A DNA stretch of 64,000 nt, taken from an uncultured bacterium. GTDB taxonomy: Bacteria > Fidelibacterota > Marinisomatia > Marinisomatales > TCS56. This document shows, piece after piece, positions 2,680 to 44,097 of the stretch (position 1 is its first letter; each line of letters begins with the position of its first letter). The stretch spans positions 7,209 to 71,208 of the forward strand of contig CAZVNL010000004.1 in the NCBI GenBank assembly GCA_964628055.1. The letters run 5' to 3'. The notes beneath the pieces are model-generated. The model did not search any database, was not told the origin of the DNA, and saw nothing but the letters and a program-made list of their open reading frames with translations. The position numbers were made by a program, and so were the translations under genes.

Positions 2680-3300
2680 GTGCGTAATGGAGATTCCCGG
2701 CGGCGCTACATCTGGATACACGGGGATGAAGACACGGCTCGACGGGCGCTCGATCACCATCTCCAAACCGCTAGAGGGTGGGCTTTTTATATCGAGAGTT
2801 CCACCCGCGAGGTATCCTTTGGTGATGGTCGGATTGACCCCAACCGCATGTTCAGTCGCTCGGGAGCGGTGAGTGATTTTCTCCGCTGTAACCCCCAGTG
2901 GACGCCTGCTTACTTAGCAACCCAACTGAATTTACTCGACGAGGCTCGAGAAACCTTTTTAAACCTTCTGTTGCCACCGCCGGGGGGACTTTTAGTCTCG
3001 GTTCATAACAATTCCCAGGGGTATTCGTTGGAGACCGAACGGGATAAAAGTCAGGCCCAGGTGGTGAGGAGCGGTGTCGATCTCCATGACTTCTTCCTTT
3101 GTGTGGCTGAAAAAGATTTCGCCATTTTACAGGATTCCCCTTACAATGTTATTCTCCAGGCGAAGAATATTGAGGATGACGGTTCCCTCTCCTGCCTGGC
3201 TGCCCGGCGAGGGGTTCGCTATGTGAATTGCGAAGTGTCTTTAGGGAATCTTGCCCGGCAACAGGCAATGTTGGCCTATCTTGATGAGCATTTAGACTAA
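2680..3300 (+). CDS. hypothetical protein, possible zinc-hydrolase-like (IHGDE ... DPNRMF ... SVHNN motifs)
   Basis: 206-aa ORF with a GTG start. The motif pattern loosely recalls AstE/AspA or M14-like hydrolases, but I cannot place it in a family. Confidence 0.45.
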   Translation: MRNGDSRRRYIWIHGDEDTARRALDHHLQTARGWAFYIESSTREVSFGDGRIDPNRMFSRSGAVSDFLRCNPQWTPAYLATQLNLLDEARETFLNLLLPPPGGLLVSVHNNSQGYSLETERDKSQAQVVRSGVDLHDFFLCVAEKDFAILQDSPYNVILQAKNIEDDGSLSCLAARRGVRYVNCEVSLGNLARQQAMLAYLDEHLD

Positions 3301-3316
3301 AACTTTAATCCTAAGC

Positions 3317-3799
3317 TCAGTTTCCCCTGGTTGCCTTTCTCTGAGAAGAGCGCCAGTAAAAGAGTAGAACCAGCCCGGCGAGATTAGGAAACCAGACCAA
3401 TGGATGTGACCAGGGAACCCCGGAGAAGGTGACGGAAGAGAGGGGCCAGAGGAATTTTGTGGGGAAAAAGGCCCGGGTGTGGAAGGGGAGATCTAACAGA
3501 ATGTGGAATGGCCAGGCCAACAGCGGAAAAACGAGCGGTTTTTTCCACCTCCACACGCACACTAACAGTAAAGAGACAACCAATAGACTATGGGTTAAAT
3601 CATAGACCCAAAGCAACCAGGTTGGCAATGTATCTAACGGGGGCGGTCCGAATTTTAAAGGTCCTTGAAACAACCGAAAAGGAAGGTAGAGACCAAAGGA
3701 GACTAAATCGGGGAAGGCGCCCCAAAAGGTTGCCCACCAGGGGTGTCCACGGTAGCCAAACAGACCCCGCCCCCATAAAGCGTGACTTAACGTATCCAC
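3317..3799 (-). CDS. membrane-bound metal-dependent hydrolase, YdjM/DUF457-like
   Basis: 160 aa and multi-TM. The N-terminus MDTLSHALWG and the His-rich C-terminal TM segment (PFHILLDLPFH) are typical of DUF457. Confidence 0.7.
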   Translation of the reverse strand: MDTLSHALWGRGLFGYRGHPWWATFWGAFPDLVSFGLYLPFRLFQGPLKFGPPPLDTLPTWLLWVYDLTHSLLVVSLLLVCVWRWKKPLVFPLLAWPFHILLDLPFHTRAFFPTKFLWPLSSVTFSGVPWSHPLVWFPNLAGLVLLFYWRSSQRKATRGN

Positions 3800-3949
3800 A
3801 AATGGTTACCCAGTCGCACAGGTTGTAGACTTAGTCAACGACAAAATAAGTCTTTTAACAGCGAATCGCCTAGAATATTTTTCCCCAGAAATTGAAATTC
3901 AATGTAGTTTTCTAATTGGTAAATACCTAAAAGACAGGAGGTGTTACGC

Positions 3950-4153
3950 ATGTTATCTGGTACCGTTAAAGAATGGGATCGTGATAAGGGTTACGGTTTC
4001 ATCGAAGGGGAGGATGGGAATGATTATTTTGTCCATATTTCGGGATTAAGACCACAATTGAAGCAACGGGGATTACTCCCGGGACAGAAGGTGTTGTTCG
4101 ATGTGGATTTTGATATGAAAGGGGACAAGGCCATTAATGTACGCCCTTCTTAG
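3950..4153 (+). CDS. csp: cold-shock domain protein (CspA family)
   Basis: AGGAGG at 3936-3941 lies 8 nt before ATG 3950. The sequence GTVKEWDRDKGYGFIEGEDGNDYFVHISGL contains the RNP1 and RNP2 motifs. A ~140-nt AT-rich leader lies upstream. Confidence 0.9.
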   Translation: MLSGTVKEWDRDKGYGFIEGEDGNDYFVHISGLRPQLKQRGLLPGQKVLFDVDFDMKGDKAINVRPS

Positions 4154-4203
4154 TGTCATTTACCGGTTTGGTAATATAACCGATCGTTACGGGTTTTAAG
4201 GCT

Positions 4204-5394
4204 TTAATAGAAGAACTGCTGTATATCATAGACGGCTACCTTCACACCGGGAGCGGAAACGTCACGAAAGGCGTGTTTTAATTCATTGGCCATGCGGCGA
4301 ATTTCCAGACGCGTAGGGGGTTGGATCTGCCGCTCCGTGAGGACTTGGACATATTCCGGGTTGGTCTCGTAGAATTCGGAGACGTAGATGATGTCTCCCT
4401 GAGTGAGGGGCATTTTGCTCACCAATTGCGTTGAGGCCTCCCGATGGTGTTTGTGGAACGCTTTCCCCCCCGCCCCTGCTAAAAAGATCACCCCGATGGC
4501 CAACCCGCCCGCTTTGAGTTTTTCCGTGAGCGTGAGGATTGCCTCCAATGATTGGGGCTTATTCAGCAGAGCCAGGAGGTCGGGATCACCAGACTCCACA
4601 CCTAAATAGACCCTTTTCACTCCCCACTCTTTCAACTGGGAGAAGTTATAGGCGCTTTTTTTGATTCCCGTGAATACGTCGATGAATGAAAATATAGGCC
4701 TGGCAGGTAGCTCTGCCCGGATTTGGCGGAGAATGGGAAGCAGTTTTCGCTGAGGGATTACTAGGGCATTGGCATCGGCCAGGAAAATGCTGCGGCGCAA
4801 ACGCACGCCGGCTCCTAAAAAGTCCTTTACTGCGTCTACGTGGTGGGCTACCTCCGCTAAAGGTTTGATGCGGAATGGGCGATCCCGGTAAAAGTTGCAG
4901 AAAGTGCACCGGTTGTAGTTACACCCCTCTGTGATCTGTAACACCAGGGCTAAATACTGGTCGGGCGGCAAGATGGAGATAGGACGGTAAAGGTCGTGGA
5001 AATGTTGTTCCTCTACTTGTAAACGTTCCGGTGTCCAGCGTAGGATTTGATCCACAGCGGACTTGAAAACTTCTGGCAGATGCGAGAATTCTTGCCGGAG
5101 TAGCCCTGCACAACGTTTGATCAGTTCCCAACCATCGCGTTCAGGTAAAGGTTCTACGGCGCGGAATGTTTCCCCCGCCTCACTCCAACGGGACTTCTTG
5201 AAAAAGCGATTGTCCAGGGTGCGGCGATAGTTCACCCCCTCCACGTACATCCCTACCAGACGCCCTTCCCAATCGAATGTCCACAGGTTGTTGGCTGGTG
5301 TATTAAAAATATTGATGACCTGTGCTTTCAAGGTGAGAAGTACTTCTCGCTGATGGTCTAAAGGGAATTTGTACTGCTGGATTGGCGGTTTCAT
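4204..5394 (-). CDS. radical SAM domain protein with non-canonical CX4CX2C cluster motif
   Basis: The motif LQITEGCNYNRCTFCNFY was verified by translating 4945-4880. A GVESG-type strand follows. I start the gene at ATG 5394 (MKPPIQQYKF). The 519-aa ORF-track version extends into the M48 gene and is rejected. Confidence 0.8.
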   Translation of the reverse strand: MKPPIQQYKFPLDHQREVLLTLKAQVINIFNTPANNLWTFDWEGRLVGMYVEGVNYRRTLDNRFFKKSRWSEAGETFRAVEPLPERDGWELIKRCAGLLRQEFSHLPEVFKSAVDQILRWTPERLQVEEQHFHDLYRPISILPPDQYLALVLQITEGCNYNRCTFCNFYRDRPFRIKPLAEVAHHVDAVKDFLGAGVRLRRSIFLADANALVIPQRKLLPILRQIRAELPARPIFSFIDVFTGIKKSAYNFSQLKEWGVKRVYLGVESGDPDLLALLNKPQSLEAILTLTEKLKAGGLAIGVIFLAGAGGKAFHKHHREASTQLVSKMPLTQGDIIYVSEFYETNPEYVQVLTERQIQPPTRLEIRRMANELKHAFRDVSAPGVKVAVYDIQQFFY

Positions 5395-5444
5395 TAGCAA
5401 AAAGCGTAGCTGGTTGTGGTCATAAAATGGTATGCGGGTTACTA

Positions 5445-6596
5445 TCAGACTTCCATCTGAGATTCGGCCAGGGCCAGGCGCTCCCCAATGGGTGGATGGG
5501 AGTAATACAACACTTTCACCCACCAGACAGGGTAGGCGTTGGAGAGGTTGCGATTGGCCAAGCCGGCTAAGGCTGCTTGGAAGGCTTCTTTCTGGGGAAT
5601 GAGTCGTAGGGCGGTTCGGTCGGCTTGGCGTTCCCAGTAGCGCGCCAGGGCGTGGCTGAGGGGACCCAACACGAACCCGGAAAGGAAACTGAACAGGAGA
5701 ATGAAGACGGGGAAGAGGGTGAGATTCCAGCGGGTATTTTCTAAGAAGTAGGGCCAACCCCAACGCAGGACCCGATCCAGGACGAAGAAAACCACCAGTT
5801 GTTGCAAAGACCCGATGAGGATTTGTTTGGTAAGGTGGTGGTGTTCATAATGCCCTACTTCGTGGGCGATGATGGATTCGATTTCCGGAATACTCATGTG
5901 CGCCAGGAGATTATCAGCTAGCACCACCCTCCGGGTTTCCCCCAGTCCCGCTAAAAAAGCGTTCTCCTTCTTTGTTTGGCGGCTCATATCCTCTTTGAAA
6001 AAGCCACTGGGTCGCAATCCCCCTTTCCTGAGGAGTTTTTCCAGGCGCTGGGTTAAATCTTGATCGTCGATTGGTTCGTATTTATTGAAAATGGGCAGGA
6101 TTACCACGGGGGCCAGGGTTGTCAATAGAACCCCAACGACGATAGAGGCTAAACTGGTGAGCCACCACCAGTGAAGGGGATAGACCGCCATGATCCAAAA
6201 CAACAATCCCACCAGCAAAAGCGATAGGACCAGTCCAACCAGGTAACCCTTGAGTTGTTCAAGTAGCCAGGAGGCCACGGTATGGTTGGAGAAATGCCAC
6301 TTGTGTTCATGGATATATCCGCTGTAGTACCTGAGCGGGAAAGTTACCAAAGTGGCCAGGGTTAGGAGAACGAGCAAGTAGAAAACCACGGTCATGGCCA
6401 TGGTGGAACCGAAACGGAGTTGGGTCAGGTAAGCGCTAAATCCGCTGGCGTAGAACATCAGTAAAAATAGTAACGACAAGAGAAAACCGGCGAGCCCCAG
6501 GAGACGTTTCTCTTTTTCATACTGCTGGGCCTGCCTTTGCTTCTCTTCGTCTAACAAGGGATGGATTGAAGGATTTTTCGTGGTTTTTTCGTGCAT
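5445..6596 (-). CDS. M48 family (Ste24/HtpX-like) integral membrane zinc metalloprotease
   Basis: 383 aa with multiple TM helices. The HEXXH motif is HEVGHYEHHH, and a C-terminal SHPPIGERL motif is present. Confidence 0.9.
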   Translation of the reverse strand: MHEKTTKNPSIHPLLDEEKQRQAQQYEKEKRLLGLAGFLLSLLFLLMFYASGFSAYLTQLRFGSTMAMTVVFYLLVLLTLATLVTFPLRYYSGYIHEHKWHFSNHTVASWLLEQLKGYLVGLVLSLLLVGLLFWIMAVYPLHWWWLTSLASIVVGVLLTTLAPVVILPIFNKYEPIDDQDLTQRLEKLLRKGGLRPSGFFKEDMSRQTKKENAFLAGLGETRRVVLADNLLAHMSIPEIESIIAHEVGHYEHHHLTKQILIGSLQQLVVFFVLDRVLRWGWPYFLENTRWNLTLFPVFILLFSFLSGFVLGPLSHALARYWERQADRTALRLIPQKEAFQAALAGLANRNLSNAYPVWWVKVLYYSHPPIGERLALAESQMEV

Positions 6597-6616
6597 GTTA
6601 CTGTCTATACTGAAGT

Positions 6617-7309
6617 TCAGGTGTGTTTTCTATCGTTAGCGTCAGGTGTGGGTTCCAGGAAATTCCGGATGATGCGGATAGCCGGTAAGGGAATCTTGTG
6701 GTTGGCTTCCACCCAGGCTAAAGTCACAGAATACCCGGAATTTTTTAAAAGGTTATAAACCACCTGACTTTCGTGTGGATCCACGATGGTGTCACGGGTT
6801 CCGTGAAGCATGAGGATGGGGGTTCCCCGGCTGGTGGGGGTGGCAGCAGTCTGAAGGTGGGCTTGATCTTTAACCATGCCCGCAAACCACACCACACCTC
6901 CCAGGGCGACCTTCAAGCGCAAGGCGAATTCCAGGGCCAGGCTGGCACCCATGGAAAACCCTACTAAGTAGAGGTTGGTAGGGGAGAACCCCCTATTTTG
7001 CAAATTAGCCAACAAGGTTCTCAAGAGGGTGAAAGAACGTTTGGTTTTCCAGCCTTCCGCGTCGGAACCGCTGAACCAGGTATAGTTCTTGCCGGTACTG
7101 GCCGGGTAAGGAGCGCGGGGGCAGAACCACACCGTAGAAGGGGCTCGTACGGCTTTAGCCACCGTGAGCATGGCGGATTCGTCCCCGGTCCAGCCGTGGA
7201 GGCCTATCACAGCCTGTGTCGGGTGCGCATGAACCTGAAAGGTAGCCAGAGGATGATTCTTTAAGAGTGTTTCGAAGGACTGGTCGGTTGTGGGGAAGTC
7301 GTTCACCAT
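6617..7309 (-). CDS. alpha/beta hydrolase, phospholipase/carboxylesterase family
   Basis: 230 aa. It has a GLHGWTGDE region, the nucleophile elbow GFSMGA, and HGTRDTIV near the C-terminus. Confidence 0.8.
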   Translation of the reverse strand: MVNDFPTTDQSFETLLKNHPLATFQVHAHPTQAVIGLHGWTGDESAMLTVAKAVRAPSTVWFCPRAPYPASTGKNYTWFSGSDAEGWKTKRSFTLLRTLLANLQNRGFSPTNLYLVGFSMGASLALEFALRLKVALGGVVWFAGMVKDQAHLQTAATPTSRGTPILMLHGTRDTIVDPHESQVVYNLLKNSGYSVTLAWVEANHKIPLPAIRIIRNFLEPTPDANDRKHT

Positions 7310-7354
7310 TCTTCCAGGGGTACAGATAGTGCCGTTAATCCATTTACGGGAAGG

Positions 7355-7618
7355 TTACTCGCAGCAGCAATTATCCACCACGGTAATGTTGTTCTTCTCC
7401 GCCCCGATTATTTGATAGCGCACGCAGGCACCGATTTGCAATTCCTCGAGCGTTGTATCGGCTACAAATTCTGCAATGTTCTCCGCAGCGACCTCCGTGA
7501 AAAGGTACCCTTCGGTGAGGTCGCCACAGTCAGCGCAATCATTGCCTTTATTGCAGGCCCCGGTAACAATTAGGATTGCCGTAAACAAACTGATTACGAT
7601 GGCGAAACGTCGTTTCAT
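7355..7618 (-). CDS. small Cys-rich lipoprotein, hypothetical
   Basis: 87 aa with signal plus lipobox (LIVTGAC). There are 7 Cys including a terminal CCCE. Confidence 0.55.
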   Translation of the reverse strand: MKRRFAIVISLFTAILIVTGACNKGNDCADCGDLTEGYLFTEVAAENIAEFVADTTLEELQIGACVRYQIIGAEKNNITVVDNCCCE

Positions 7619-7638
7619 AGAACCTCCGTTAAGTGATC

Positions 7639-7956
7639 TTATGGGGTTTTTGGGAAGTTAGCGGCGGCCGTCAGCACCCACTTGGCGTTAGCGGGGGTAC
7701 GGCTGGGTTCCAGGCGGTAGAGCTCCCCGGTTGCCGTGTCCAGGAGATAATGCCAGTGAGTACGGTCGATGGAGAAACTCTGGAGTTGGTAGCGGCCACT
7801 CTGGTTGCTTTTGGTCGTTTCCTGTTTAATATAGGTCTCCAGGCGTTTTAGGATTGCCCGTAGGGAATCGTCCTGAAGTTCGGTTGATCCCAGGAAGAAA
7901 AAGATGCCCATCATCAGGGCAATCCCCGAGATCAGACCCGTAAGGTACTGTTTCAT
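7639..7956 (-). CDS. hypothetical single-pass membrane protein
   Basis: 105 aa with an N-terminal TM helix (LISGIALMMGIFFFLG). No family recognised. Confidence 0.5.
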   Translation of the reverse strand: MKQYLTGLISGIALMMGIFFFLGSTELQDDSLRAILKRLETYIKQETTKSNQSGRYQLQSFSIDRTHWHYLLDTATGELYRLEPSRTPANAKWVLTAAANFPKTP

Positions 7957-7976
7957 AAACCCTCCTTTCTTGAGCG

Positions 7977-8630
7977 TTACGATCTTCTGCGGCTCGCCTC
8001 GTAAGCGGCCATGCGTTCAACGAAATCGGCTTCATTCTCAGCCTGTAAAAGGGGACTGAGGAGAATGTTTTCTTCCAGGGTGGCCGTGGGTTGCGGCCCA
8101 TAGTCGTGGCCCGGATAAATGGTTGTATTTCCCGGTAAAATAAGCACTTTCTGGTACACGGAATGATATAATTGGCAGACGTCGCTCCCGGGACTGACGG
8201 TTCGTCCGGTGCGCCCGATGAACAAGGTATCCCCGGTGAATAAGGCATCTTCCATGAGGAAACATACCGAATCGGGATAATGCCCTGGTGTGTATAACGC
8301 CTGGATCCGGACGTTACCCAGACTGATGATACTACCTTCTTGTAGGGGCATAAGGTGTTCAGTGCCGATTTTTCGGGCGCCAGACTCGTGAACGGCCACC
8401 CGAGCTTCCGGATAGCGGTGCAGGTAATCCCTCAAATAGACAAGGTGGTCCCCGTGGGTGTGGGTGATGCCGATGTATTTTAGGGTTTTCAAGTAGGATT
8501 GTAATCCCTGGAGGGGCAGGGCCGCGTCCACTAAAAATTGTTCCCTGGTGGTGGTCTCCGTGACCAGGTAGGTCAGGTTGTCATCGAAACCACCCTTAAA
8601 AGAACGGATGGAGAGTAGATTTTTTCGCAT
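7977..8630 (-). CDS. MBL-fold metallo-hydrolase (glyoxalase II-like)
   Basis: 217 aa with the ITHTHGDH motif and later TPGHYPDS and PGHDYG motifs. Confidence 0.85.
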   Translation of the reverse strand: MRKNLLSIRSFKGGFDDNLTYLVTETTTREQFLVDAALPLQGLQSYLKTLKYIGITHTHGDHLVYLRDYLHRYPEARVAVHESGARKIGTEHLMPLQEGSIISLGNVRIQALYTPGHYPDSVCFLMEDALFTGDTLFIGRTGRTVSPGSDVCQLYHSVYQKVLILPGNTTIYPGHDYGPQPTATLEENILLSPLLQAENEADFVERMAAYEASRRRS

Positions 8631-42058: not shown

Positions 42059-43057
42059 ATGGAGATGCAATACCGAACGTTGGGGAATTCAGGATTACGT
42101 TTGAGCGTTTTCTCTTACGGGTCGTGGATAACCTTTGGCAATCAGGTTGGTTTAGAAGAAGCCCAGAAGCTCATGAAGACGGCTTACGATGCTGGAGTGA
42201 ATTTTTTCGATAATGCCGAGGTTTACACCCAGGGGAAATCGGAAGAGATCATGGGGCAGGCGGTCCGTCGTTTGGGGTGGAGTCGGGATAGTTTTTGTGT
42301 GTCCAGTAAAGTGTTTTTTGGGGGGCAGCGTCCTACCCAGCGGGGGCTGCATCGTAAACACATCACCGAGGCCTGCCATGGGGCTTTACGGCGGCTTCAG
42401 GTGGAGTACCTGGACCTTTTTTTCTGTCATCGCCCCGACCACCATACCCCCATTGTAGAAACAGTGCGGGCCATGCATACCCTGGTTTTACAGGGGAAAA
42501 TATTGTATTGGGGGACTTCCGAATGGAGTGCCGATCAAATTCGTACGGCTTATGCCGTGGCCCGGGAGCATCATTTGACCCCTCCCACGATGGAACAACC
42601 AGAATATAACCTCTTCGAACGTCAGAAAATGGAACGGGAGTATCGGGACCTTTTCCGGGATGAACACCTAGGGACGACCGTTTGGTCTCCGTTGGCTTCG
42701 GGTATTTTAACAGGGAAATACAGCCGGGGGATACCTGAAAACACTCGCATGAAGGTGGAAGGTTATCAATGGTTACAGGAACGTTTGCTTTCCCCCGAAG
42801 GAAAGGAGCGAATTGCTAAGGTGCGGGAGCTGTCCCAATTGGCCGATGAAGTTGGGATTAAATTGGTCCATCTGGTGCTGGGGTGGTGTTTACAAAATCC
42901 CAACGTAAGCACGGTAATCTTAGGAGCCTCCAAAGTATCCCAATTGAAAGAGAACCTGAAAACCCTAAAAGTGTTAAACGTTTTCACCTCTGAGCTTATG
43001 GAGCAGATCGAGGGGATTGTCCAGACCAAACCGCAAATGCCCATGCAGTTTGAATGA
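42059..43057 (+). CDS. aldo/keto reductase (Kv-beta-like subfamily)
   Basis: 332 aa with motifs YRTLGNSGLRLS, FFDNAEVY, LDLFFCHRPD and WGTSEW. Confidence 0.9.
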   Translation: MEMQYRTLGNSGLRLSVFSYGSWITFGNQVGLEEAQKLMKTAYDAGVNFFDNAEVYTQGKSEEIMGQAVRRLGWSRDSFCVSSKVFFGGQRPTQRGLHRKHITEACHGALRRLQVEYLDLFFCHRPDHHTPIVETVRAMHTLVLQGKILYWGTSEWSADQIRTAYAVAREHHLTPPTMEQPEYNLFERQKMEREYRDLFRDEHLGTTVWSPLASGILTGKYSRGIPENTRMKVEGYQWLQERLLSPEGKERIAKVRELSQLADEVGIKLVHLVLGWCLQNPNVSTVILGASKVSQLKENLKTLKVLNVFTSELMEQIEGIVQTKPQMPMQFE

Positions 43058-43074
43058 AGGACTTTTAGACAATT

Positions 43075-43845
43075 ATGGGTGACTGGCGGGAATTTTCACC
43101 TACTGTTAGGACTTCTTTGCGATTATATCCCTGGAGTAGGATACGTCCCATTCCCTGGGCCACACTGCCCAAGCCCCTTTGCCAGTCGAAAGTGGCGGTT
43201 GTCTCTACGGCAGGCCTGGTATTACCCACCCAGGAGGAGTTCGATCCGAGCATTAAGGGCGGCGATTATACGCACCGGGTTATCCCTGCGAATGTTGATT
43301 TGGAAACGCTTCGGGACACCCACCGTAGCCGCGTGTTCGACCACGACGGCTACCGTTCAGATCCTAATTTGGCTTTTCCCCTGGACCGGTTGCGGGAACT
43401 CCAGGAAGACAAGGTCATTGGAGCCCTGGGCGAACATCACATTTCTCTTATGGGGTCGATTACGGCGCCTGGTAGATTGAAAAAAATGACCGCTCCCAAG
43501 GTTGCCAATCTTTTTCTTGAAGAGGGTGTTGATGCTGTGCTATTGTTTCCGGTGTGACCTTTTTGTAACCAGACCGTGAGCCTGGTTGCGGCAACCGTCG
43601 AACAGGTGGGAATTCCTACCGTTGTCATTCAGTTTATTTGGGAAATTGCCAGGAAAATAAAACCTCCCCGGGCGTTATTAGTCCCCTATTGTCACGGATA
43701 CCCCCTGGGAGAACCCCATAATATTCCTCTTCAAAAGGACATTTTGCAGCGAGCGTTGAATTTATTGAACCATCCAGGACCACCACCAGTTTTAGAAACA
43801 TTCTCCCCGTCGGCTACACCGGTGACCCCTGAGAAAGGAGATTAG
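43075..43845 (+). CDS. GrdB/PrdB-family selenoprotein (Sec encoded by TGA 43555-43557), short form
   Basis: ORFs 43075..43557 and 43576..43845 share one frame and are separated only by TGA plus 6 sense codons. The junction LLFPV-U-PFCNQTVSLVAATVEQVGIPTVV...PYCHGYPLGEP parallels the GrdB Sec region as I recall it. A candidate SECIS hairpin lies 7 nt downstream. Confidence 0.75.
43564..43590 (+). promoter_or_regulatory. candidate bacterial SECIS stem-loop
   Basis: UGUAACCAG (43564-72) pairs with CUGGUUGCG (43582-90), giving 7 Watson-Crick and 2 G-U pairs. The 9-nt loop ACCGUGAGC contains GU. The hairpin starts 7 nt after the UGA. Confidence 0.6.
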
Positions 43846-43875: not shown

Positions 43876-44097
43876 GTGAAATATTTTGGAAGGTATTTGA
43901 TTATAGTCGGGGTCATTTTACTTATTGTAGGTGGATTTATGTATTTTAGCGGGAGCAAGTTAAAGTGGATCGGTCATTTGCCAGGAGATATACGCATCGA
44001 ACGTGACTCTTTCCGGTTCTATTTTCCAATCACCACGATGGTTCTTTTTTCTCTACTGCTGACCTTGTTGATTCGTATCTATCAATGGTTTCGATAA
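43876..44097 (+). CDS. DUF2905 family small membrane protein
   Basis: 73 aa. The segment LPGDIRIERDSFRFYFPITT between two TM helices is the DUF2905 signature. Confidence 0.8.
   Translation: MKYFGRYLIIVGVILLIVGGFMYFSGSKLKWIGHLPGDIRIERDSFRFYFPITTMVLFSLLLTLLIRIYQWFR

Follow-up and report, generated by a model that had tools for sequence, protein, structure and literature searches.

A reading frame split by an in-frame UGA: evidence for a stand-alone PrdB-like selenoprotein gene in a Fidelibacterota contig

When two open reading frames (ORFs) lie in one frame and little more than a TGA codon separates them, the question arises whether they are two genes, the remains of one gene, or a single gene in which the UGA is translated. 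Such a locus is present at positions 43075-43845 (plus strand) of a 64,000-nt stretch of DNA, hereafter the window, which belongs to contig CAZVNL010000004.1 of an uncultured bacterium assigned to the Fidelibacterota. A preliminary description of the locus had proposed an orphan, reductase-family selenoprotein related to GrdB. Our analysis supports the orphan selenoprotein, which stands alone in the window and in 80 related loci, and moves it to the neighbourhood of PrdB. The best explanation as a whole, to which we assign a probability of about 0.85, is a single stand-alone selenoprotein gene of PrdB size in the GrdB/PrdB superfamily, with the motif PV-U-P-x-C-N-Q, in which U stands for selenocysteine (Sec).

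The layout described beforehand, with two ORFs (43075-43557 and 43576-43845) in one frame and the TGA 43555-43557 between them, was borne out. The ATG at 43075 starts a 160-codon ORF that ends at this TGA, beyond which the same frame continues for 95 sense codons up to the TAG at 43843-43845, giving 256 residues in total when it is read through. The second ORF starts at the GTG at 43576, six sense codons past the TGA. The coding part upstream of the UGA (residues 1-160, 43075-43554, plus strand) contains the family-invariant motifs STAG, THRSxxFDH, DPNLAFPLDRLRE, MGSITAPGR and VDAVLLFPV. The UGA itself (43555-43557, plus strand) corresponds to residue 161, and the downstream part (residues 162-256 followed by the TAG, 43558-43845, plus strand) contains the blocks EQVGIPTVVIQ, KPPRALLVP and HGYPLGEP. 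The readthrough junction is ...AVLLFPV-U-PFCNQTVSLVAATVEQVGIPTVVIQ...HGYPLGEP or, in a longer form, ...VDAVLLFPV-U-PFC-NQTVSLVAATVEQVGIPTVVIQ...HGYPLGEP. The resolving Cys164 is encoded by TGT at 43564-43566, within the U-P-F-C motif. In our opinion the region 43075-43845 is very probably one gene for a Sec-containing PrdB-like protein of 256 residues.

The evidence that carries this reading comes from related loci. A protein homologue search gave 2608 clusters at 90% identity. Among the 120 clusters listed, nearly all homologues were called at exactly 160 residues, and about ten were full length, with 245-271 residues. The 160-residue calls are therefore cut at the UGA codon. The closest PrdB-like homologue is the protein MFQ6606061.1 from a metagenome-assembled genome of the Fidelibacterota (84% identity). 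A scan with one genome per species revealed a relative in 542 genomes, and for the comparisons described here the best 80 loci were used together with the window (81 loci). These 80 loci belong to the Thermoanaerobaculia and other Acidobacteriota, the Verrucomicrobiota, the Myxococcota, the Brocadiaceae (Planctomycetota), the Desulfobacterales (Desulfobacterota), the Binatia, the Gemmatimonadota and a Fidelibacterota-like lineage (locus L001, 82% identity), and the orthologous loci span at least 8 phyla.

At the position of the proposed Sec residue, the codon is TGA in 79 of the 81 loci, the window included, and TGC in the remaining two (L044 and L068). The full-length database homologues carry Cys in this column, with the sequence CP(M/L)CNQ in P0002-P0008 and P0012, and more distant relatives of the Cys form were also found. 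In two full-length calls from JGI (P0010 and P0013) the column contains a W, which we read as TGA translated as Trp. These two entries suggest that some pipelines used a code with TGA as Trp, by which selenoproteins are masked as apparent Trp variants.

In their DNA, the homologues continue past the UGA. At least 75 sense codons are open after it in 80 of the 81 loci, compared with 11 and 38 loci in the two control frames. The variability of alignment columns by codon position follows the same pattern downstream (0.13/0.08/0.42) and upstream (0.14/0.12/0.45) of the codon. When the window was compared with its two closest relatives, both of its own lineage, the ratio of synonymous to non-synonymous differences past the UGA was 30:16 for L001 and 26:16 for L084, and in the N-terminal part it was 54:27 and 52:34, respectively. 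These data point to a coding signature and to purifying selection in the sequence following the TGA, also within the lineage of the window. The two halves never occurred as separately conserved genes, the 160-residue entries being truncations by gene callers. Based on the comparison of the loci, the UGA at 43555-43557 is almost certainly decoded as selenocysteine, as originally proposed. A scan of the window for other pairs of ORFs split by an in-frame TGA revealed no credible case besides this gene.

The second line of evidence is a hairpin of the selenocysteine insertion sequence (SECIS) type within the coding sequence (43564-43590, plus strand), which was found by folding and by covariation across the 81 loci. 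In the window, 43564-43572 pairs with 43582-43590, and this stem-loop, with two G-U pairs among its 9 bp and a loop of 9 nt (ACCGUGAGC), had been noted before and has a centroid energy of -11.1 kcal/mol. Its stem begins at the 7th nucleotide past the UGA. Above the stem follow an A.C mismatch (43573/43581), a C-G pair that closes the loop (43574/43580), and the apical loop itself, CGUGA (43575-43579), in which the family-invariant G and a near-invariant U occupy positions 43576-43577.

The 54 nt around the codon could be aligned without gaps across all loci. RNAalifold and a pair count placed the conserved core of the helix at the alignment columns 17-26 and 32-41, which correspond to 43565-43574 and 43580-43589 of the window, with a loop CGUGN that starts 17 nt past the UGA. 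The cells of the helix are paired in 87% of cases, a proportion that drops to 42% or less once the partner columns are shifted by 1-3, and its covariation score was reached by none of 500 shuffles. Double, compensatory changes occur at the four pairs 21:37, 25:33, 24:34 and 26:32; for example, pair 21:37 is present as C-G (48) or U-A (21), and pair 25:33 as G-C (37), A-U (30) or G-U (10). In terms of codons, the covariation couples the synonymous third position of an Asn codon (AAC/AAU) with position one of a Val/Ile codon, and position one of a Thr/Ala codon with position three of a Ser/Gly/Cys codon. Neither coupling is expected from protein constraints alone. The C-G and U-A forms of pair 21:37 coexist, together with the intermediates U.G and C.A, within the Thermoanaerobaculia, the Myxococcota, the Gemmatimonadota and the Desulfobacterales, and therefore several independent events took place.

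The loop is also conserved, and only the Cys forms have lost its GU. Its G is invariant and the next U is present in more than 90% of the loci, while the Val codon providing this GU is replaced by an Ala, Met or Ser codon in the Cys forms. Both loci with TGC lack the loop GU, and L068 additionally lacks a part of the stem. In the window, the conserved Val codon is the GTG 43576-43578, which serves as the "start" of the 89-residue ORF both in the ORF list and in metagenome gene calls, and its G and U are the loop GU; thus, the recoding signal itself provides the false ORF start. Taken at the level of the aligned loci, a short SECIS hairpin almost certainly directs Sec decoding at this UGA.

To which family does the protein belong? 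The preliminary description had assigned the protein to the GrdB family and noted that, with 256 residues, it is far shorter than canonical GrdB. The Pfam model PF07355 (GRDB) indeed matches with 39.8 bits (cut-off 22), residues 24-157, as far as the Sec position, corresponding to model positions 212-344 of 347. However, the top NCBIfam model is PrdB (TIGR04483), with an E-value of 1e-35 and 123.3 bits over model positions 19-219 of 238, and it outperforms GrdB (1.4e-11). The score of 123.3 bits does not reach the equivalog cut-off of TIGR04483, which is 300 bits. The models for GrdF, GrdH and GrdB gave 66, 54 and 44 bits, all below their cut-offs of about 600-800 (602-800) bits. The protein is far shorter than GrdB with its about 435 residues, as had been stated, but since the closest family is PrdB, its length is normal for a PrdB-sized branch (238-242 residues) and does not reflect shortening of a GrdB.

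For a direct comparison we used prdB genes annotated on plasmids of Terrisporobacter, Ligilactobacillus salivarius and Peptoclostridium. The encoded PrdB proteins have 237-241 residues and an in-frame TGA within ...TAG-U-GTC-HR.... A joint alignment puts the UGA of the window and their TGA into one column and shows Cys164 to be invariant, and in this way the proposed Sec column and U-x-x-C pair found their counterparts in annotated selenoprotein genes. The identity to these proteins is 31-34%, with 34% for the PrdB of Terrisporobacter.

In canonical PrdB loci the gene is part of an operon, prdA-CBO2463-prdB(-prdD-prdE-racemase), which we saw in L090 and L091. The gene context in the window is different. 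Upstream, at a distance of 17 nt, lies a gene for an aldo/keto reductase (AKR; 42059-43057, plus strand), and downstream, after 30 nt, a gene for a DUF2905 protein of 73 residues (43876-44097, plus strand; PF11146, 3.3e-23), exactly the two neighbours named before. PlsX, homocysteine S-methyltransferase, a PP2C phosphatase and Sir2 are also encoded in the neighbourhood. The order PlsX-AKR-PrdB-like-DUF2905 is present only in the closest relatives (L001, L081 and L084-L086; 79-84% identity), and DUF2905 is not conserved at this site outside the lineage. The linkage to AKR and DUF2905 is lineage-level synteny only and is lost in other phyla.

When 3296 ORFs were clustered all against all, no family neighboured the gene in over 15 of the loci, and the few recurrences reflect clade-level synteny. 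In a Pfam census of the 121 immediate neighbours in the 80 loci, 131 families were matched, the commonest of which (GAF/LuxR) occurred 6 times. PrdA, Grd proteins, thioredoxin and proline racemase were found neither among these 121 neighbours nor in the window, and the statement that grd, prd and thioredoxin partners are missing nearby holds for all loci considered. The gene and its family stand alone, without a recurrent neighbour. A promoter and terminator scan gave counts at the level of shuffled sequences.

Two observations on gene content were made along the way. In L091 (Ligilactobacillus salivarius plasmid NZ_CP123972.1, 839-12334), a lactobacillus megaplasmid, a complete prdA-CBO2463-prdB-prdD-prdE-racemase operon with an in-frame TGA in prdB is flanked by genes for YeeE/YedE, TusA, rhodanese and the selenium-metabolism protein YedF. 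It looks like a plasmid-borne module which unites proline reductase and selenium-handling genes. In the window, at 185-1870 on the minus strand, an ORF encodes an M23 peptidase domain together with a Por_Secre_tail sorting domain (type IX secretion). This combination would suit an origin of the window from the FCB group or the Fidelibacterota, and MFQ6606061.1 as the nearest homologue agrees with it.

What could the protein do? An AlphaFold2 model of the Cys homologue P0004, which is 54% identical, had a predicted local distance difference test score (pLDDT) of 89.7 and a predicted template-modelling score (pTM) of 0.90. It contains a strand at 154-158, the Sec column at 161 and a helix at 164-177. 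It has an alpha/beta fold, which we read as Rossmann-like according to its alternating strands and helices. In such a fold Sec161 would be located at the C-terminal end of the strand, ahead of the helix of Cys164, which is the usual spot for a redox nucleophile whose resolving Cys follows after one turn of the helix. About 40 other residues are invariant, and according to the secondary structure of the P0004 model they are mostly located just past beta-strands. The invariant polar residues include H83, R84, S85, D89, H90, D96, N98, R105, H122, S128, R134, R199 and Y209. This pattern suggests a dedicated small-molecule pocket.

By analogy to PrdB and GrdB, the protein is probably a redox enzyme, namely a reductase with Sec as nucleophile and Cys as resolving residue. 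It is tempting to speculate that the selenol of Sec161 attacks a bound small-molecule substrate, that Cys164 then resolves the Se-substrate intermediate under formation of a selenenylsulfide, and that an external dithiol or a thioredoxin-type reductant recycles the latter. Unlike in the proline and glycine reductases, this would happen without a genetically linked pyruvoyl subunit (PrdA/GrdE). A mechanism specifically of the PrdB/GrdB type is a tentative proposal, which we hold to be slightly less probable than its opposite. Since a linked pyruvoyl subunit is missing, the substrate is probably not D-proline. Whether the clade with U-P-x-C-N-Q constitutes a self-sufficient selenoenzyme, which acts without a pyruvoyl subunit and has a chemistry or substrate unlike that of any Stickland reductase, is in our view an even bet.

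Several points weigh against a stand-alone selenoprotein gene with a reductase function. First, the fold of the window hairpin as a single sequence is at chance (z = 0.44; 129 of 200 shuffles fold equally well or better), and the window has a weaker version of the hairpin, in which an A.C mismatch lies below the loop. The base of its stem has gained an extra A-U pair. It is the comparison across loci, not the window fold alone, that raises the hairpin above chance. Second, neither a gathering scan of the window nor a scan of 43500-43660 at E<=10 with Rfam detected a SECIS or another RNA family at the site, which says little because bacterial SECIS elements are short and family-specific. Third, selA, selB and selD were not found in Pfam scans of 20 ORFs of the 64-kb window, and tRNA-Sec was found neither in the window nor in the 42 related loci scanned for tRNAs; for this organism we infer Sec decoding from conservation only. 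Furthermore, searches by sequence and with Foldseek retrieved no solved structure for the family, and the proposed catalytic mechanism would follow wholly from analogy.

Four other explanations were considered. According to the first, the protein is a general thiol/selenol-disulfide oxidoreductase, similar to thioredoxin, in which U-x-x-C shuttles electrons to protein or low-molecular-weight disulfides. This would fit the position of U-x-x-C at a strand-helix junction in the P0004 model and the missing operon partner, and selenoproteome surveys group PrdB with homologues of thiol-based oxidoreductases. We nevertheless consider it unlikely: the about 40 further polar residues that are invariant across phyla, mostly past beta-strands, suggest a pocket, and the core common with PrdB (D89, D96, FP, MG, PRA) is kept.

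The second explanation, that the gene provides a true D-proline reductase, or another Stickland-type reductase, with its selenoprotein subunit while the PrdA/GrdE partner is encoded elsewhere in the genome, also counts against a stand-alone enzyme. It could draw on PrdB being the top NCBIfam model, on the 34% identity and colinearity with annotated PrdB including U-x-x-C, and on database pipelines, which name homologues "D-proline reductase PrdB". However, 123 bits are far from the equivalog cut-off of 300, the motifs SHGGYDN, MGGGG and AG-U-GTC-HR of canonical PrdB are replaced, and nothing similar to PrdA, Grd proteins or racemase is encoded in the window or by any of the 121 neighbours in the 80 loci, in contrast to canonical operons. 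Moreover, Stickland fermentation is not known as a trait of the host phyla. Altogether, a D-proline reductase subunit is very improbable.

Still less credit can be given to the third explanation, in which the TGA is a true stop, the locus is a truncated gene, a pseudogene or a pair of genes (160 and 89 residues), and the hairpin is incidental. Gene callers and GenBank do give a 160-residue product, in some records together with the 89-residue ORF, and the unexceptional hairpin energy and the Sec machinery not found in the window would agree with it. Yet 79 loci, from at least 8 phyla, share a TGA at this very codon, which is replaced by TGC in two; the downstream frame is open and under purifying selection; the conserved Val codon of the loop GU is the very GTG taken for the start of the second ORF; and the C-terminal half of PrdB can be aligned with the residues past the TGA. 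A true stop is, as far as such comparisons can tell, already contradicted. Finally, reading of the TGA as Trp or Gly by code reassignment or leaky readthrough, to which the W in P0010 and P0013 would conform, has a negligible chance, as TGA terminates 13 of the 41 long ORFs in the window, the adjacent AKR gene among them, and the genetic code is therefore the standard one, the DNA of the 81 loci shows no sense codon at this column other than TGC for Cys, and a conserved, covarying downstream hairpin is a signature of SelB-dependent recoding.

The reading as one stand-alone PrdB-like selenoprotein gene is important for several reasons. For the window it corrects the gene model, in which two fragments become one selenoprotein of 256 residues. 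Thousands of database entries share this truncation at the UGA (2608 clusters at 90% identity, with 160 residues in most of the 120 listed). The 160-residue products of close relatives are named "PrdB" or "GrdB family" in GenBank, and such labels invite wrong metabolic inference, for example Stickland proline reduction in Acidobacteriota or Fidelibacterota. Further, with Sec kept far more often than Cys (79:2 in the 80 best loci and the window) and without an operon partner, the clade is a reasonable target in the search for a new selenium-dependent activity. If it is indeed a self-sufficient selenoenzyme, soil and marine bacteria would be using selenium on a large scale in a functionally uncharacterised manner, hidden by the truncation at 160 residues, and the clade concerned extends to at least 542 genomes at species level, from phyla that are mostly non-fermentative.

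The existence of the clade will be no surprise to specialists. Selenoproteins termed "proline reductase PrdB" with UxxC have appeared since 2005 in selenoproteome surveys, which count them among the most abundant marine selenoprotein families, with 42 genes from Sargasso Sea data (Zhang, Fomenko & Gladyshev 2005, PMC1088965) and 235 in the Global Ocean Sampling (GOS) data (Zhang & Gladyshev 2008, PMC2398784). Anaeromyxobacter and Geobacter uraniireducens, too, are listed with a "proline reductase" selenoprotein in a selenoproteome survey. Objects of this kind are thus known, orphan "proline reductase" UxxC selenoproteins having been catalogued, and truncation at UGA is a known annotation artefact. 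Neither Anaeromyxobacter nor Geobacter uraniireducens is known to ferment amino acids by Stickland reactions. In a literature search for "PrdB-like" and "GrdB-like" orphan proteins we found no dedicated study, and no separate description of the clade represented by the window as a sister clade.

Related clades without Sec, or with other residues in its place, were also encountered. In L089 (Roseomonas haemaphysalidis plasmid, 5911-8296) and L088 (Haematobacter, 3093-6828) orphan GRDB-family proteins of the Cys type with about 305 residues and the motif VPNCP(I/V)CHQT are encoded, which are of the same type as the one GOS "proline reductase" read that we compared. The Roseomonas gene adjoins one for the adenylyltransferase SelO, and the Haematobacter gene one for a large class-III aminotransferase. 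A fused sister architecture is found in the Cys proteins P0159, P0186, P0204, P0207 and P0182 (390-415 residues), in which the PrdB-like domain (...TPTCPFCTHT...) is followed by a C-terminal extension of about 150 residues, which has no Pfam match and contains the motifs WACPVSFP, FYxEA and WFWxET. P0149, P0163 and P0169 are fragments of about 232-254 residues starting just past the Sec position, probably Sec forms cut by gene callers. In the distant relatives P0234 and P0122 the Sec/Cys column is occupied by Ser (VAVSPVCN) or the resolving Cys is missing (SCPMSEQ), and the U/C-x-x-C pair is thus not kept in all branches of the superfamily.

Among the known systems, GrdB, GrdF and GrdH (PF07355; TIGR01917, NF040794, NF040795) belong to the same superfamily and have, like the window protein, Sec followed by x-x-Cys. 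However, the N-terminal half of GrdB, roughly 200 of its residues, is absent from the window protein, which matches model positions of about 213-425. The GrdB motif is UxxCxxC (PMC13188914), whereas U-P-F-C-N-Q-T of the window protein is a UxxC without the second Cys, and the GrdB partners grdA, grdC, grdD, grdE and trx are all missing near the window gene.

PrdB (TIGR04483), the selenoprotein subunit of 26 kDa that belongs to the D-proline reductase in Clostridium sticklandii (Kabisch et al. 1999, as cited in PMC1088965 and PMC13188914), is more similar. It is colinear with the window protein, has a similar length (about 238-242 versus 256 residues), shows the Sec column followed by x-x-Cys, and shares the blocks FP(L/I)DRL, MG, GVD, E-x-x-GIPT, PRA and G-x-x-x-GEP. 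The common core comprises D89, D96, F101-P102, G127, C164, E176, G179, P198-R199 and G208, and in both genes the SECIS is located inside the coding sequence just past the UGA. On the other hand, SHGGYDN, MGGGG and AG-U-GTC-HR of PrdB correspond to THRSxxFDH, MGSITAPGR and PV-U-PxC-NQ in the window protein. PrdB is encoded in an operon with prdA, prdH, prdD, prdE and prdF, while the window gene lacks such an operon and its family is found in Acidobacteriota, Verrucomicrobiota, Myxococcota, Fidelibacterota and others instead of Clostridia.

A further parallel is the family from the Sargasso Sea and GOS data, which like the window protein is stand-alone, PrdB-like and characterised by U-P-x-C in non-clostridial environmental bacteria. 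The window protein is an object of that same kind and was recognised by the same approach. Within the portion of the GOS supplement covered here (PMC2398784), the orphan motif U-P-V-C-H-Q occurs 86 times, and neither UGTCHR nor U-P-x-C-N-Q, the motif of the window protein, is present. The window protein shares 29% identity with one GOS "proline reductase" read, which resembles alphaproteobacterial Cys proteins of roughly 305 residues. Based on the different motif and the identity of 29%, the window protein therefore belongs to a sister clade of the GOS type.

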